Part shown: positions 15,895-39,760 of the stretch, in pieces
Layout of the letters: every line of letters begins with the position of its first letter
Numbering within the stretch: position 1 is the first letter of the stretch
Sequence record: OQ703102.1
Strand: one strand, 5' to 3'
DNA: 40,875 nt
DNA from: Escherichia phage vB_EcoP-R1
Made by a program: the position numbers and the translations under genes
Notes under the pieces: generated by a model
The model's input: the letters and a program-made list of their open reading frames with translations, nothing else
The model's database searches: none
Told to the model about the DNA's origin: nothing

Positions 15895-17661
15895 ATGTCT
15901 AAGAAAACACCTGTCGAAAGACAGGCAGAAATGACCCAAAGGATGAGGGACGACTTCGTGTTCTTCATCTTCGTTCTCTGGAAAGCTCTTAGCCTTCCGG
16001 CTCCAACCCGCTGCCAGATAGATATGTGTAAGAAGCTGGCTGCTGGGGATAATCGCCGCTTCATCCTTCAGGCGTTCCGTGGTATTGGCAAGTCGTTTCT
16101 GACCTGTGGTTTCGTGGTCTGGAAACTATGGAACAACCCAGACTTAAAGTTCATGATTGTGTCGGCCTCAAAGGAACGAGCCGATGCTAACTCCATCTTC
16201 ATCAAGCGAATAATCGACCTCATGCCTCAGCTTAAGGAACTCAAACCTAAGCAGGGGCAGCGAGATGCGGTTATCAGCTTCGACGTTGGACCAGCCAAGC
16301 CAGACCACTCACCTTCGGTTAAGTCCGTTGGTATCACTGGTCAGTTGACTGGTAGTCGTGCTGACATCCTGATTGCCGATGACGTGGAGGTTCCGAACAA
16401 CTCAGCGACTCAGTCTGCACGAGACCGTCTGTCAGAGCTTGTGAAAGAGTTCGACGCTATCCTGAAGCCGGGAGGTACAATCATCTATCTGGGTACTCCT
16501 CAGAACGAGATGACCTTGTATCGTGAGCTGGAAGGCCGTGGGTACACCACTACCATCTGGCCTGCTCGTTATCCACGCGACAGGAAGGACTGGCAGTCTT
16601 ACGGCGACCGTCTGGCACCGATGCTTCAGGCAGAGCTGGAAGAGGACCCTGAGTCCTTCTACTGGCGTCCGACCGATGAAGTACGATTCGATGATACGGA
16701 CCTGAAGGAACGTGAGCTGTCCTATGGTAAAGCTGGCTTCGCTCTACAGTTCATGCTTAACCCTAACCTGAGTGATGCTGAGAAGTACCCTCTGAAGCTC
16801 CGTGACCTTATCGTAGCCGACTTGGACCCAGCGTCTAGCCCAATGGTATACCAATGGCTTCCTAACCCTCAGAACAAGCGTGAGGACGTTCCTAACGTTG
16901 GACTCATGGGTGACTCATACCACACGTATCAGACTGTAGGTTCTGCCTTCAGTTCGTACACCCAGAAGATTCTAGTCATTGACCCTAGTGGTCGTGGTAA
17001 GGATGAAACTGGTTATGCGGTACTGTACCAGCTAAACGGCTACATCTTCGCTATGGAAGTTGGCGGTATGCGAGGTGGCTATGAAGACTCTACGCTGGAA
17101 GCCTTGGCTAAGATTGGTCGTAAGTGGAAGGTCAACGAATACGTCATTGAGGGTAACTTCGGTGATGGTATGTACCTTGAGCTATTCAAGCCTGTAGCTT
17201 CCCGTATCCATCCTGCGGCTGTAACTGAAGTGAAGAGTAAGGGTCAGAAGGAACTCCGCATCTGTGACGTTCTGGAGCCTATCATGGGGTCTCACCGACT
17301 TATCGTTAACGCTGCTGCTATCGTCCAAGACTACCAGTCTGCCTCTGATAAGGATGGTGTTCGTAATCCTATCTACTCTCTCTTCTACCAGATGACACGT
17401 ATCTCTCGTGAACGTGGAGCATTGGCACACGATGACCGACTTGATGCGCTGGCTATCGGTGTACAGTTCTTCGTTGAGTCTATGGCTAAGGATGCCAACA
17501 AAGGCGAACGTGAAGTCACTGAGGAGTGGCTGGAGGAACAGATGGAGAACCCACGGAAAGGCTTCGAGTCCATCCACACTGAGTTCTGGGACAATGGGGT
17601 CCGGGTAACTCACGATACGGACGACGAGCTTGGACTAGGGTCCTACGTTACGTTCCACTAG
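15895..17661 (+). CDS. 19: Terminase large subunit (gp19 homolog)
   Basis: 588 aa (T7 gp19 586 aa); conserved position; RBS GGAGGGA. Confidence 0.93.
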
Positions 17662-17755
17662 CTGAATGAATAACTATGGGTGAAAACTGAATTAATAAGC
17701 AGTTAGTAACCTATAGTTACTACCAGTCTAACCTACTGTTTTATAAGGAGTTTGG

Positions 17756-17778
17756 ACTTAACTATCACTATAGGGAAG
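17756..17778 (+). promoter_or_regulatory. Phage RNAP promoter (phiOR-like, near the right genome end)
   Basis: GACTTAACTATCACTATAGGGAA; +1 G at 17773. Confidence 0.8.
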
Positions 17779-17958
17779 ACCCCCGGTTACTTATAGTATT
17801 ACTGTAGTGAATATACATATGCAGACTTTATGCAAGACCTTAGGAGGCAGACTCCGAGTTCTTACCTAAGGCTTGCACCGATGGAAGGAGGGTGATATTA
17901 ATCATAATCCCTCCAATACAGATAGTCACCGACCATAGATACAGGAGGTATGTAGCAT

Positions 17959-18117
17959 ATGGCAAAGACCAAAGCTGTACTTAAAGCTCTGGCGACCAAT
18001 CGAGCTACATACAGGTTTCTTGCTGCTGTTCTACTTGCTGCTGGCGTTACTGCTGGAAGTAAGTGGGTCGGGTGGGTCGAGACTCTCGTATGTTCTCTGG
18101 TGTCTCAGTGTAATTAA
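17959..18117 (+). CDS. Small hydrophobic protein (gp19.5 position)
   Basis: 52 aa MAKTKAVLKALATNRATYRFLAAVLLAAGVTAGSKWVGWVETLVCSLVSQCN with RBS AGGAGGT 8 nt upstream; below the track size cutoff. Confidence 0.4.
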   Translation: MAKTKAVLKALATNRATYRFLAAVLLAAGVTAGSKWVGWVETLVCSLVSQCN

Positions 18118-18150
18118 CGCAATCATGGTAACGATTCATGAGCGGAAGAC

Positions 18151-18193
18151 CTAAGGTCAGTACGTGGATAAAGACTCACTCTACTGACCTTAG
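18151..18193 (+). repeat. Perfect 12-bp inverted repeat (CTAAGGTCAGTA / TACTGACCTTAG) forming a hairpin in the right-end unique region
   Basis: Read directly from the sequence; arms separated by 19 nt. Confidence 0.6.
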
Positions 18194-18355
18194 CTACTGT
18201 AGTCAAGGACTTTAGGTAACACCTTAATAGAAGCTCACCTAGGGTCATCCTACTTATTGGTCTATCCTAGTGTCGCCTGACCTACGGTCCTTGACCTACA
18301 GTAGCTGCCACCTACGGTCACTCGATGAGTTTTGGACCAAAAGTTTGAGACCACA

Positions 18356-18550
18356 TCTCACAGTTCAAGAACCTCAAGTCTCCCCATAGGCCCTCTTTCA
18401 GTCCAGACCAAAGGCCCTACCCCAGTCTATCATAAGGTTAGACCGATGGTCAAGACGTTAGGTCAACGATAGGTCTAGGCTATGGCTTAGGGAAGGACGA
18501 TAGGTAGGGACTATGGGTCTGTCTCTGAGTCTCTATCTGTATAGTGATAT
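18356..18550 (+). repeat. Genome terminal repeat region (single copy at the joined right-end/left-end junction)
   Basis: TCTCACAGTTCAAGAACCTCAAGTCTCCCCATAGG... closely resembles the first bases of the T7 left end (TCTCACAGTGTACGGACCTAAAGT...); the stretch ...GTCTCTGAGTCTCTATCTGT near 18520-18540 resembles the end of the T7 terminal repeat. Boundaries approximate. Confidence 0.5.
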
Positions 18551-18571
18551 AGTATAACATTACGTCCTACA

Positions 18572-18660
18572 CCTACAGTCTGACTAACCTACAGTCTGAC
18601 TAACCTACAGTATCAACCATAAGACACCAACACCTACAGTCAAAGACCTACAGCTAATAG
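18572..18660 (+). repeat. Short direct repeats built on CCTACAG (including a 16-bp tandem CCTACAGTCTGACTAA x2)
   Basis: Read directly; analogous in position to the CCTAAAG-type repeats next to the T7 terminal repeat. Confidence 0.6.
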
Positions 18661-18767
18661 ACACAAAGCTATAGACTTAAGGTCAGAGACATGTTAGTCA
18701 AAGACTATATCCTATTACTCACCATGGGGCCGACGATAGCTCAATCAATATTATTTAAGATTACCTA

Positions 18768-18796
18768 TTGACTACAGGTCCAGACTATGGCTTAAT
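18768..18796 (+). promoter_or_regulatory. Host sigma70-type early promoter (A1-like)
   Basis: TTGACT - 17 bp - CTTAAT with AT-rich upstream element; resembles T7 A1 (TTGACT...GATACT). Confidence 0.45.
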
Positions 18797-18908
18797 AGCT
18801 TCCGTCAACACGACACGGCAACAACCGGATAGTGAAGACGCCGGGTCATCCCGGTTAAGTAGACAGCCTGATAAGTCATACGAACAACAGGCAGATGACA
18901 GAAAGTAG

Positions 18909-18938
18909 TTGACAAGATGTACCGACTTAAAGTAGTAT
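18909..18938 (+). promoter_or_regulatory. Host sigma70-type early promoter (A3-like)
   Basis: GTTGACAAGATGTACCGACTTAAAGTAGTATGTACCACATCAAC resembles T7 A3; -35 TTGACA, -10 TAGTAT with 18-bp spacer. Confidence 0.5.
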
Positions 18939-19060
18939 GTACCACATCAACACGAAACAACGGTGACGACCAACACTGAAATGGTCTACCTGAAGTCCTC
19001 TGACTGAAGGGAATGCTCTTTAACAATCTGGATAAACTCTTAATGTGCGCCGATAGCGAC

Positions 19061-19115
19061 TAACTACAGGGTCTTTGAGTCTACATTTGAAGGCCCTGAC
19101 TGATAGTCACTAACT
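19061..19115 (+). repeat. Early-leader element copy 1 (R0.3-like), direct repeat of 19382-19430
   Basis: ...CTAACTACAGGGTC...CCTGACTGATAGTCACTAAC; the 20-nt core CCTGACTGATAGTCACTAAC is identical in both copies and resembles the T7 gene 0.3 leader. Confidence 0.5.
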
Positions 19116-19121
19116 TAACGG

Positions 19122-19376
19122 ATGGACACTATGAAACACTTAAGCACAATCACTAATCACAATGAAGTATTCGTGAACACTAAAGGTTATGCGTGGATTC
19201 AGCTTAAAGAGATGACAGGAGCGCGTCACCGTGTGGTAGTGCGCAGGGTATCAAGCAAGCCGTTCAGCAACTACAGTATAGACACTGTGCGTATAGACAA
19301 CGATACCTACCTGATAGACTCACAGATAACCGTGAGTCCTACAGCGAGCGCCTCAGCTCCTTATTTCGCTAACTGA
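19122..19376 (+). CDS. Hypothetical early protein upstream of ocr
   Basis: 84 aa ORF (alternative start ATG 19131); bracketed by two copies of the leader repeat; no recognisable motif. Confidence 0.5.
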   Translation: MDTMKHLSTITNHNEVFVNTKGYAWIQLKEMTGARHRVVVRRVSSKPFSNYSIDTVRIDNDTYLIDSQITVSPTASASAPYFAN

Positions 19377-19381
19377 GAGTG

Positions 19382-19430
19382 ATTAACTACAGGTCGTTAG
19401 ACTCATAGCGGCCTGACTGATAGTCACTAA
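19382..19430 (+). repeat. Early-leader element copy 2, immediately upstream of ocr
   Basis: Direct repeat of 19061-19115. Confidence 0.5.
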
Positions 19431-19463
19431 CATACATATAAACAACTTTGAGAGGATATAACT

Positions 19464-19967
19464 ATGGAACGCAACGCTAACGCATACTATGAGCTGCTGG
19501 CTGCAACCGTTGAGGCATTTATCGAGCGTATTCAGTACGACCACCTGACTAAAGATGACGACTACAGCGATGCGCTGCATGAGGTCGTAGACGGTCAGGT
19601 CCCGCTCTATTACCACGAGATTTTCACGGTGATGGCTGCTGATGGTATAGACCACGAGTTCGAAGACTCTGGGCTGATGCCTGAAACCAAGGACGTAACG
19701 CGTATCCTACAAGCTCGCATCTATGAGGCACTTTATAACGACGTGTCTAATAGCTTGGATGTAGTCTGGTTTGAGGATGAAGAGGCAGACGAAGAGGATG
19801 AATATTGGGTAGTTGACGCTAAAACAGGCGCAATAATTGTGCAATCTGTAGCTCTTGAGGTCGCTACTGCATGTGCCGAGGTCAACTATGCGGCAGGTCG
19901 CCACCTGAAGGTGGAAGACATCAATGATAACGTAGTGTTCGACCCTGCGGCTGAGGACTGCGAGTGA
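19464..19967 (+). CDS. 0.3: Ocr-like anti-restriction DNA mimic (gp0.3 homolog) with a C-terminal extension of about 50 aa
   Basis: 167 aa; ...[54 protein letters not shown]... parallels T7 Ocr (...[46 protein letters not shown]...); acidic run [12 protein letters not shown], then extra non-acidic sequence absent from T7 Ocr (117 aa). Confidence 0.85.
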
Positions 19968-38102: not shown

Positions 38103-39663
38103 ACGTGAAGGATTTGCCGCTGAAGGCGCGAAGTCAGTTTATGATAGGCTGAAGAACGGACGACAACCTTACGAGACCAGAGCACAGAACTGCGCTGCCG
38201 TGACCATACCGTCGCTATTTCCGAAGGAATCTGATAACTCCTCGACGGAATATTCAACTCCGTGGCAAGCTGTAGGTGCTCGCTGTTTGAACAACTTGGC
38301 TGCAAAGCTGATGTTGGCATTATTCCCTCAGTCACCGTGGATGCGACTGACAGTCTCCGAATATGAGGCCAAGACCTTGAGTCAGGACTCAGAGGCTGCT
38401 GCTCGTGTTGACGAAGGGCTGGCTATGGTCGAGCGTGTGTTGATGGCCTACATGGAGACCAACAGTTTCCGTGTGCCATTGTTCGAAGCTCTGAAGCAGC
38501 TTATCGTCTCCGGTAACTGTCTGCTTTACATTCCAGAGCCTGAACAGGGTACTTACAGTCCTATGCGAATGTACCGCTTAGTGTCATACGTTGTTCAACG
38601 TGATGCTTTCGGTAATATCTTGCAGATTGTGACTCTCGACAAGGTAGCGTTTAGTGCTCTACCGGAAGACGTGAAGTCACAACTCAACGCAGACGACTAT
38701 GAGCCTGACACAGAGCTGGAAGTTTATACGCACATCTACCGTCAAGACGACGAGTATCTACGTTATGAGGAAGTGGAAGGCATTGAGGTAGCAGGGACCG
38801 ATGGTTCCTACCCACTGACTGCATGTCCATACATCCCGGTACGAATGGTTCGACTGGATGGTGAAGACTATGGTCGTTCTTACTGCGAGGAGTATCTGGG
38901 TGACCTGAACTCGCTGGAGACGATTACAGAAGCTATCACCAAAATGGCTAAGGTAGCCTCCAAGGTGGTGGGCCTCGTTAACCCGAACGGTATCACGCAA
39001 CCTCGTCGGCTGAACAAGGCGGCTACAGGTGAGTTCGTTGCCGGTCGCGTTGAGGACATCAACTTCCTGCAACTGACTAAGGGTCAGGACTTTACGATTG
39101 CCAAGTCGGTGGCTGACGCTATCGAGCAACGTTTAGGCTGGGCCTTCCTTCTTAATAGTGCTGTTCAGCGCAACGCCGAGCGAGTCACTGCTGAAGAGAT
39201 TCGTTATGTTGCTGGCGAACTGGAGGCGACCTTAGGTGGCGTGTACTCAGTACAATCCCAAGAGCTTCAGTTACCTATCGTCCGTGTGCTGATGAACCAA
39301 CTTCAGTCTGCTGGCATGATTCCTGACCTTCCGAAAGAAGCGGTAGAGCCTACTGTCTCCACTGGTCTGGAAGCGTTAGGTCGTGGTCAGGACTTGGAGA
39401 AGCTAACTCAGGCGGTTAACATGATGACTGGTCTTCAGCCGCTATCTCAGGACCCGGACATCAACTTGCCGACCCTTAAGCTACGACTCCTGAACGCTCT
39501 GGGTATCGACACCGCCGGCCTTCTGCTGACTCAGGACGAGAAGATGCAACGTATTGCTGAACAATCCGCTCAAGGAGCTGTGGTCAACGGTGCGTCTGCT
39601 GCTGGTGCTAACATGGGTGCTGCTGTAGGTCAGGGAGCTGGTGAGGACATGGCTCAAGCCTAA
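38095..39663 (+). CDS. 8: Portal / head-to-tail connector protein (gp8 homolog)
   Basis: 522 aa (T7 gp8 536 aa); conserved position between 7.7 and scaffold. Confidence 0.93.
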   Translation: MAEREGFAAEGAKSVYDRLKNGRQPYETRAQNCAAVTIPSLFPKESDNSSTEYSTPWQAVGARCLNNLAAKLMLALFPQSPWMRLTVSEYEAKTLSQDSEAAARVDEGLAMVERVLMAYMETNSFRVPLFEALKQLIVSGNCLLYIPEPEQGTYSPMRMYRLVSYVVQRDAFGNILQIVTLDKVAFSALPEDVKSQLNADDYEPDTELEVYTHIYRQDDEYLRYEEVEGIEVAGTDGSYPLTACPYIPVRMVRLDGEDYGRSYCEEYLGDLNSLETITEAITKMAKVASKVVGLVNPNGITQPRRLNKAATGEFVAGRVEDINFLQLTKGQDFTIAKSVADAIEQRLGWAFLLNSAVQRNAERVTAEEIRYVAGELEATLGGVYSVQSQELQLPIVRVLMNQLQSAGMIPDLPKEAVEPTVSTGLEALGRGQDLEKLTQAVNMMTGLQPLSQDPDINLPTLKLRLLNALGIDTAGLLLTQDEKMQRIAEQSAQGAVVNGASAAGANMGAAVGQGAGEDMAQA

Positions 39664-39681
39664 ACTATCACTATAGGAACT
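39659..39681 (+). promoter_or_regulatory. Phage RNAP promoter (phi9-like)
   Basis: CCTAAACTATCACTATAGGAACT overlapping the portal stop; +1 G at 39676. Confidence 0.8.
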
Positions 39682-39760
39682 TAGACAAGATTCACAAAGC
39701 ATTAGGCCGGGTGAGACTCCCGGTCGGTTCCTATCATCAACTTAAAAGGAGAATGACTCA

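Follow-up and report, generated by a model that had tools for sequence, protein, structure and literature searches.

Introduction

In the T7 family, virion DNA has unique, non-permuted ends that each carry a short direct repeat of about 150-250 bp. The layout of these genome ends, organised around the terminal repeat, has been described for T7 and for K1F, whose genome and 179-bp repeat were reportedly published in 2005. To our knowledge, the extents of pacB and pacC have been defined experimentally for T3 and T7 only. The hairpin intermediate of T7 described by Chung, Nardone and Hinkle in 1990, in a series whose paper III reportedly names the hairpin in its title, presumably maps ~190 bp left of the repeat, at T7's inverted repeat.

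PacB and PacC have been given roles in terminase recognition and cutting (PMC9860248). During T7 infection, hairpin-ended DNA containing the repeat has been reported and was read as support for duplication of the repeat by primed synthesis (PMC4281155), while recent reviews still call the repeat-duplication step poorly understood. A class II pause or termination signal is located at the T7 concatemer junction (bioRxiv 10.1101/2021.01.11.426313; 10.64898/2026.02.12.705533; PMC11617373). Signals of this class consist of ATCTGTT in the non-template strand after A, C or T, with the polymerase pausing or terminating 6-8 nt further downstream and processing depending on this. An insertion screen in T7 found the ends to be largely non-essential save for positions 142 and 162 (PMC11482910), the second of which falls inside the ATCTGTT motif of that phage. 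Among the relatives studied by run-off sequencing, SH3, SH4 and SH5 have repeats of 183-190 bp (183 bp in SH3), and K1F is given as 179 bp (PMC4925675).

Here, we compare with these systems positions 18118-18660 of the window, by which we mean the whole stretch of DNA that was analysed, 40,875 nucleotides in length. An earlier note, made from the letters of the DNA, had taken this stretch to be a T7-type genome-end region, and the comparison bears this out, since the first base of end-mapped relatives aligns with 18356 and the elements around it are conserved. The best explanation as a whole, to which we assign a probability of roughly 90%, is that 18118-18660 represents the junction of the right genome end with the left genome end, and that the assembler fused the two by collapsing the terminal repeat into one copy, so that the stretch resembles the join of neighbouring genomes in a replicating concatemer.

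Results

A K1F-like genome probably assembled through its ends

Across 17650-19150, the window has 92-96% DNA identity to Kayfunavirus genomes (387 records matching), with LI10P1 and PSK1 as the closest. The phage part of the window, 396-40606, is collinear with PSK1 in a circularly permuted order. Relative to PSK1, ~99 bp between the scaffold and capsid genes are absent, where the two phage ends of the contig would join. Both ends of the contig are non-phage, consisting of E. coli DNA and Illumina adapter. Judged by homology, the window covers nearly the whole genome of a phage that resembles K1F and belongs to the genus Kayfunavirus (T7 family; Autographiviridae, Studiervirinae). As the contig is broken elsewhere, with host DNA and adapter at its ends, its topology is uninformative on the form of the genome in the virion.

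Matches to PHROG families were obtained for the terminase large subunit, gp19.5 and an Ocr-like protein, and the genes and promoters on the two sides of the junction are the following.

15895..17661, + strand: terminase large subunit (T7 gene 19 homologue), 588-aa ORF; phrog_38, E = 2e-130; same annotation in PSK1 and others
17759..17779, + strand: predicted phage-RNA-polymerase promoter, positional counterpart of phiOR; TAACTATCACTATAGGGAAGA
17959..18117, + strand: gene 19.5 homologue, final gene of the genome, 52-aa ORF; phrog_2193, E = 1.7e-24
18768..18796, + strand: candidate host-RNA-polymerase early promoter; TTGACT, 17 nt, CTTAAT
18909..18938, + strand: candidate host-RNA-polymerase early promoter, sigma-70-like; TTGACA, 18 nt, TAGTAT
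19122-19376: small conserved ORF on the far side of the junction
19464-19967: Ocr-like gene (PHROG match)

The stretch is thereby flanked by the late genes 19 and 19.5 on one side and by the early promoters and the gene 0.3 region on the other. This is where T7-type genomes have both of their ends, suggesting that the contig reads through the right-to-left-end junction. The large-subunit match identifies a terminase of the T7 type, and PSK1, which is collinear, has an annotated small terminase subunit. In CR44b, the counterpart of the last gene is likewise labelled gene 19.5, and its product has one predicted transmembrane helix.

The phage promoter at 17759-17779 is placed like T7 phiOR, between genes 19 and 19.5, and like a 'predicted promoter' of CR44b. 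Its matrix score of 32.5 is partly circular, the matrix having been built from this site together with 7 other promoters of the window; with the same matrix, ten good promoter sites in the window score 24.5-35.1. We infer from its position that this promoter would drive transcription over gene 19.5, the right end and, in concatemers, the repeat. On the left-end side, the candidate at 18768-18796 has a by-eye likeness to T7 A1 (TTGACTTAAAGTCTAACCTATAGGATACT), has a non-canonical -10 hexamer and was not reported by the consensus promoter scan. The candidate at 18909-18938 has 10 of 12 consensus matches and may resemble T7 A3; the T7 annotation places A2 at 626 and A3 at 750. Between the repeat and these early promoters, the eight-promoter matrix detected no phage promoter of the phiOL type, the best score being 10.7 versus at least 24.5 at real sites.

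The terminal repeat is placed by end-mapped relatives

The central element of the junction is the terminal repeat, followed directly by a short motif.

18356..18534, + strand: direct terminal repeat, single collapsed copy, 179 bp; edges taken from end-mapped relatives
18535..18541, + strand: ATCTGTA, directly after the repeat, in the place where T7 has its class II pause/termination signal ATCTGTT; candidate counterpart of that signal

It had been pointed out before that the sequence from 18356 mirrors the start of the T7 genome. Indeed, its first 8 bases are those of T7 positions 1-8, and the agreement with K1F is far longer, with the first 43 bases from 18356 identical to K1F positions 1-43. 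The sequence TCTCACAGTTCAAGAACC begins at 18356, and the longer TCTCACAGTTCAAGAACCTCAAGTC was found once in the window, at 18356-18380. Position 18356 aligns with base 1 of Penshu1, K1F, YZ1 and two wastewater Kayfunavirus genomes. A search with 18340-18570 further showed that the records of KM02, CR44b and TM1 start at most 2 bases from the equivalent of 18356, and that those of Midid and Emlis terminate at this equivalent on the opposite strand.

The right edge can be placed in the same manner. Penshu1 carries the annotation 'direct terminal repeat predicted by PhageTerm' at 1-179, and its base 179 aligns with 18534. The K1F record begins with TCTCACAGTTCAAG, and its first 178 bases recur at its right end; over its full length, 18356-18534 of the window aligns with Penshu1 1-179 and with K1F 1-178. 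The repeats of relatives stop between GAGTCTCT and ATCTGTAT, which corresponds to 18534/18535 in the window. Seven IMG/VR contigs that include both ends have repeats of 179-191 bp, four of which stop exactly between GAGTC(T/C)CT and ATCTGTAT, and the boundary in T7 is homologous, with CCCT followed by ATCTGTT at 160/161.

From these alignments we infer that 18356, where the repeat begins, corresponds to the mature left end and 18534, where it stops, to the mature right end, the latter being uncertain within a few bp. The boundaries that the earlier note had left open would therefore lie at 18356 and at about 18534. Only one copy of the repeat is present in the window, as expected if an assembler collapses two copies or if the reads derive from concatemers. 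Within the repeat, the first 60 and the last 40 bp are conserved and the middle is variable in an alignment of 13 Kayfunavirus junctions.

A possible pause-signal counterpart follows the repeat

The motif immediately after the repeat is strongly retained. ATCTGT is unchanged in all 13 aligned Kayfunavirus junctions and in every relative whose ends were compared; ATCTGTT stands after the repeat in T3-like contigs and at 161-167 in T7. The window's ATCTGTA matches the class II motif ATCTGTT in 6 of 7 positions, with a T before it, and differs at base 7. For T7 polymerase, any base change in the class II motif has been reported to abolish termination (10.1101/2021.01.11.426313), while the cognate enzyme here is a polymerase of the K1F type. 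This motif had been overlooked in the earlier note, as had the right-side array, the hairpin distance shared with T7 and T3-like phages and the non-phage ends of the contig.

A hairpin in conserved DNA at the right end

The unique DNA between gene 19.5 and the repeat contains three further elements.

18151..18193, no strand assigned: right-end hairpin with perfect 12-bp arms (18151-18162 and 18182-18193) and an inner 3-bp stem, GTG/CAC
18148..18320, + strand: right-side short-repeat array of ACCTAnGGTC units at 18148, 18236, 18279 and 18309, with CCTACAG at 18295
18330..18342, no strand assigned: 13-bp palindrome TTTTGG-A-CCAAAA, 14-26 bp left of the predicted left-end cut site; all bases identical in 13 junctions

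The perfect 12-bp inverted repeat noticed previously at 18151-18193 was confirmed, with arms CTAAGGTCAGTA (18151-18162) and TACTGACCTTAG (18182-18193) that are complementary at 12 of 12 positions and enclose a loop of 19 nt. It is the sole inverted repeat in the 40.9-kb window with arms of at least 11 bp and a loop of at most 40 nt, where 0.11 are expected from dinucleotide-preserving shuffles. Folded as single-stranded DNA, it gives -11.3 kcal/mol (z = -2.4), and its centre lies 184 bp left of the repeat start and 55 bp past gene 19.5. A separate 10-bp inverted repeat at 2497-2546 was dismissed, as it falls within the first part of a 785-aa ORF.

Comparison across relatives suggests that structure is retained here while sequence is exchanged. 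Within Kayfunavirus, 11 of the 12 arm base pairs (CTAAGGTCAGT/ACTGACCTTAG) are invariant in 21 of 21 IMG/VR junctions as well as in K1F and the window, so that the outer stem offers no covariation. The loop comes in three unrelated versions of 19 to 21 nt, each containing an inner stem, namely GTG/CAC in the window, GTGG/CCAC in the second version and TAGC/GCTA in the K1F type, and these three cassettes count as few independent changes. The hairpin of T7, GGGATTCAGCGGTATGATTGCATCACACCACTTCATCCC, is imperfect; its centre lies ~190 bp to the left of the T7 repeat and ~50 bp past gene 19.5. In T3-like contigs, the distance from hairpin to repeat is ~207 bp, and the T7 and T3-like hairpins share the same bracket pattern, with four base pairs altered on both sides. 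On these comparisons, the subfamily has conserved a hairpin at this position, with the pairing kept and not the sequence.

Conservation in the surrounding DNA is high. In the 13 Kayfunavirus junctions, bins covering 18176-18315 have a mean conservation of 0.85-1.0, compared with 0.75-0.82 at the end of gene 19.5, and the value drops to about 0.66 in the hairpin-loop bin (18166-18175) and in the bin 18316-18325. Such highly conserved unique DNA at the right end fits a recognition site of the pacB kind, as far as conservation can indicate. The right-side array has its T7 counterpart in the CCTAAGG/CCTAAAG units at 39620-39710, left of the right repeat. For the palindrome together with the GAGA/TCTC pairing beside the left cut site, the predicted fold was no better than that of shuffles (z = -1.1).

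CCTACAG arrays vary between close relatives

On the other side of the repeat, the junction contains a second array.

18565..18653, + strand: left-side short-repeat array, five CCTACAG copies and a 16-bp unit

CCTACAG had been said to recur at least five times here, and its copies are found at 18572, 18588, 18604, 18633 and 18647. The 16-bp tandem duplication described for 18572-18603 is correct and slightly understated, since Tandem Repeats Finder reports the unit ACCTACAGTCTGACTA in 2.6 copies with 100% matching at 18571-18611. Over the whole window, CCTACAG occurs 25 times versus 6.2 +/- 2.2 expected, and no common context or strand bias was found for the 19 copies that the window contains outside the array. 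In T7, the CCTAAAG array at about 170-345 corresponds to this array. Together with the right-side units, the window thus has short-repeat arrays in unique DNA to the left and to the right of the repeat.

Relatives have between 2 and 7 copies of CCTACAG, arranged in differing tandem units, and the array is the region that aligns worst across the 13 junctions (0.3-0.8). The earlier suggestion that these elements serve concatemer processing and packaging is supported, the region being a concatemer junction, with the one caveat that 'packaging signal' exceeds what is established for a heptamer array whose copy number varies freely. Judged by this variation, we rate the heptamer arrays as probably dispensable, slippage-prone and at most accessory to packaging, with a retained core.

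Discussion

Proposed processing of the junction

Our account demonstrates homology, boundaries, a pattern of conservation and the retention of the hairpin structure, and the processing steps are carried over from T7 and T3. By analogy with these phages, replicated genomes would anneal through the repeat to give concatemers in which each junction holds a single repeat. Starting at the phiOR-type promoter, late transcription would cross this junction, and the phage RNA polymerase would pause at ATCTGT after the repeat. The small terminase subunit may recognise a pacB site in the conserved right-end unique DNA, and the large subunit, bound to the prohead, would cut at the repeat edges, pacC. Duplication of the repeat before or during cutting would provide a copy for both neighbouring genomes, with the hairpin ~185 bp left of the repeat as the presumed site of the snapped-back, hairpin-ended intermediate that primes this synthesis.

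Alternative explanations

A contig that passes the junction unbroken could also represent a true molecule, if the genome were circular or circularly permuted with headful packaging, and some records of relatives have indeed been deposited as circular or permuted. This contig, however, is interrupted elsewhere, where host DNA and adapter form its ends, its terminase is of the T7 gene 19 type, and relatives that are 92-96% identical have had their ends mapped at this very place by run-off sequencing or PhageTerm. Furthermore, packaging in T3/T7-like phages yields genomes of exact length that carry direct repeats (PMC13595956). On these comparisons, a circular or headful genome is effectively excluded, and we prefer the fused-ends reading of the junction. 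Headful (pac) packaging, which gives permuted ends with a terminal redundancy of several percent, and cohesive-end (cos) packaging, which gives single-stranded ends lacking a direct repeat, were likewise rejected as mechanisms, as the relatives have exact 179-191-bp direct repeats at both ends and PhageTerm assigns Penshu1 to the direct-terminal-repeat class. A closer call concerns the CCTACAG array and its right-side counterpart, which might have no packaging role and instead form a slippage-prone spacer, kept mainly by slippage or recombination, that sets the distance from the genome end to the early promoters. The variable copy number and tandem units among close relatives and the poor alignment of the array agree with such a spacer, as do the tolerance of most T7 end loci to insertions (PMC11482910) and the 11 to 34 repeats that related Yersinia phages carry at this place (PMC5923468). 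Against it, the heptamer core is kept in all Kayfunavirus relatives, and T7 and T3-like phages have the one-base variant CCTAAAG, a retention that suggests some sequence-specific constraint; the right-side units, moreover, are much more conserved than the CCTACAG array. We consider a pure spacer to have a little less than an even chance of being correct.

For the hairpin, we tentatively propose a selected DNA secondary structure that is common to the whole T7 subfamily, lies 185-207 bp left of the repeat and has had its sequence replaced between genera, a proposal resting on comparison of sequences and one for which we would claim only about one chance in three. The same inverted repeat could be a two-fold symmetric binding site for a protein such as the small terminase subunit, forming part of pacB without being extruded as a DNA hairpin. 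Invariant arms around a replaced spacer are what two half-sites would show, the arm holds a ACCTAAGGTC unit, a small dyad in its own right (GACC-TAn-GGTC) with four occurrences in the conserved DNA of the right end, the entire 18176-18315 is strongly conserved, and gp18 recognises PacB (PMC9860248). Yet all three spacers are self-complementary inside, which a pure spacer would not need to be, their length varies from 19 to 21 nt between variants, and the compensatory changes between T7 and T3-like phages keep pairing and not sequence; we regard protein binding to a dyad as plausible, though less likely than not. Located 34 nt past the gene 19.5 stop and downstream of the promoter at 17759-17779, the hairpin might otherwise act in RNA, as a 3' stabiliser, a processing site or a pause element of the late transcript through gene 19.5, and covariation does not separate RNA from single-stranded DNA. 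A stem of 12 + 3 bp is short for a T7-type RNase III site, though, the T run after the stem is absent, and neither a terminator-like site in 17650-19470 nor an Rfam match at E <= 1 in 17600-19500 was found, on which grounds the reading as an intrinsic terminator or known RNA was dropped. The intermediate reported for T7 is, in addition, a DNA hairpin end (PMC4281155). Action in RNA is hence less likely than protein binding and, in our estimate, improbable.

If the hairpin is indeed a selected DNA structure, its comparison across genera would provide independent support for the 1990 model of hairpin-primed repeat duplication, and the natural hairpin variants would form a clean set for testing that model.

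Comparison with known genome ends

The closest described ends are those of the K1F-type phages, and the junction is almost identical to the ends of K1F itself. K1F, Penshu1, CR44b and SH3 share the start of the repeat with the window, K1F being identical over the 43 bases noted above, and all fall into one class of repeat length (179 bp in the window, 178-179 bp in K1F, 179 bp in Penshu1, and 183 bp in CR44b and SH3). The same hairpin arms, ATCTGTAT after the repeat and a CCTACAG array are also common to these phages and the window. The window differs in the hairpin loop, which carries a 'CGTGGATAAAGACTCACTC' cassette where K1F has 'TCATAGCTGACGCTACTCT', in the diverged middle of the repeat (about 0.6-0.75 conserved) and in its own array unit of 16 bp x 2.6, and in K1F gene 19.5 is separated from the hairpin by ~80 additional bp that look like a small ORF. 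As read from the alignments, these differences are merely allelic.

T7 has the same order of elements from gene 19.5 to the early promoters, and TCTCACAG stands at the left end of T7, of K1F and of the repeat in the window. The right edge of the repeat reads ...TCTCTG(A/T)GTC(T/C)CT followed by ATCTGT in T7 and the window alike, heptamer arrays flank the repeat on both sides, and the hairpin lies about 185-190 bp to its left. In contrast, the T7 repeat measures 160 bp rather than 179 bp and the interiors of the two are not alignable; T7 has CCTAAAG and ATCTGTT where the window has CCTACAG and ATCTGTA; the T7 hairpin stem is imperfect, while that of the window is a perfect 12-bp stem of unrelated sequence; and phiOL is an element of T7 without a detected counterpart between the repeat and the early promoters of the window. 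T3-like contigs share with the window the first 18 bases of the repeat, TCTCACAGTTCAAGAACC, and combine a hairpin ~207 bp left of the repeat with ATCTGTT after it. Phages of the T3 / phiYeO3-12 type have longer repeats (about 230 bp; 229-242 bp, PMC4925675), CCTAAAG arrays and a hairpin of the T7 sequence type.

The value of these results lies mainly in annotation, since ends at 18356 and about 18534 allow the genome to be re-linearised and its repeat to be duplicated for deposition, and since the host DNA and adapter at the contig ends have been exposed. What we add is the exact position of the boundaries, further elements of the junction and comparative evidence in favour of the hairpin, with no new kind of element. 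On the evidence of its homologies, the region is a member of the known terminal-repeat architecture of T7-family genome ends.

Sequence elements flanking the terminal repeat

To the left of the 179-bp terminal repeat (18356-18534) lies a short symmetrical element:

18330-18342, 13-bp palindrome TTTTGG-A-CCAAAA, lying 14-26 bp to the left of the cut site for the left end

All bases of this palindrome are the same across 13 Kayfunavirus junctions, its predicted fold is no better than chance, and no T7 counterpart was evident on inspection. The palindrome is possibly part of cleavage-site recognition.

On the other side of the repeat, the sequence TATAGTGATA (18540-18549), immediately after ATCTGTA, matches the phage promoter core TATCACTATA (17763-17772) exactly in reverse complement, so that a partial promoter-like element, facing leftward, adjoins the repeat. 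This element has a score of 5.9 on the minus strand with the phage-promoter matrix, which was built from eight promoters of the window. Since, among the compared relatives, it is exact only in L031, a related phage, and carries one mismatch in the Kayfunavirus phage CR44b, the comparison argues that it is probably non-functional.

Candidate promoters and possible leader elements of the early region

A matrix scan found no phage-polymerase promoter equivalent to phiOL of T7 in the interval from the repeat to the early region (18535-19120); the top score was 10.7, at 18372 within the repeat, compared with 24.5-35 for the ten real promoters. Two candidate host-type promoters are present in this interval:

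18768-18796, candidate host-type promoter TTGACT/CTTAAT, read by eye
18909-18938, candidate host-type promoter TTGACA-18-TAGTAT

Further on, a composite motif made up of the repeat families D6 and D9, in which TAACTACAGG is followed by CCTGACTGATAGTCACTAAC, occurs twice (19052-19117 and 19368-19434), with one copy ahead of each of the first two early ORFs, at 19122-19376 and 19464-19967. Its 23-nt core is 96% identical between the copies. The position of these copies would allow a role as RNase III processing sites or as leader elements in the early transcript.

Assembly artefacts in the contig and a probable one in a related record

The phage portion of the contig comprises 396-40606, and the following stretches are chimeric assembly ends that should be trimmed:

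1-394, E. coli nikA, non-phage, 99.7% identity
40605-40847, E. coli yehQ, non-phage, 98.8% identity
40848-40875, Illumina adapter, final 28 bases, AGATCGGAAGAGCGTCGTGTAGGGAAAGAGTG

With the close relative PSK1 as reference, ~99 bp of the scaffold/capsid intergenic region are absent between the two ends of the phage portion.

In the record of Providencia phage EPr2 (OM256482.1), a 179-bp 'direct terminal repeat' is annotated twice within bases 1-679 (1-179 and 501-679), and four places match the terminal-repeat-region query, which together suggests a mis-assembled or mis-linearised deposit rather than real biology.

Over-representation of CCTACAG

CCTACAG is over-represented genome-wide, with 25 copies observed versus 6.2 expected. 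The 19 copies outside the array (18572-18653) are dispersed in coding sequence on both strands, and no common context for them was found across the window. At 7 of 9 positions, the array unit CCTACAGTC, and likewise the T7 unit CCTAAAGTC, agrees with the promoter core in reverse complement (CCTATAGTG), a likeness barely beyond chance (p about 0.06, a rough estimate).
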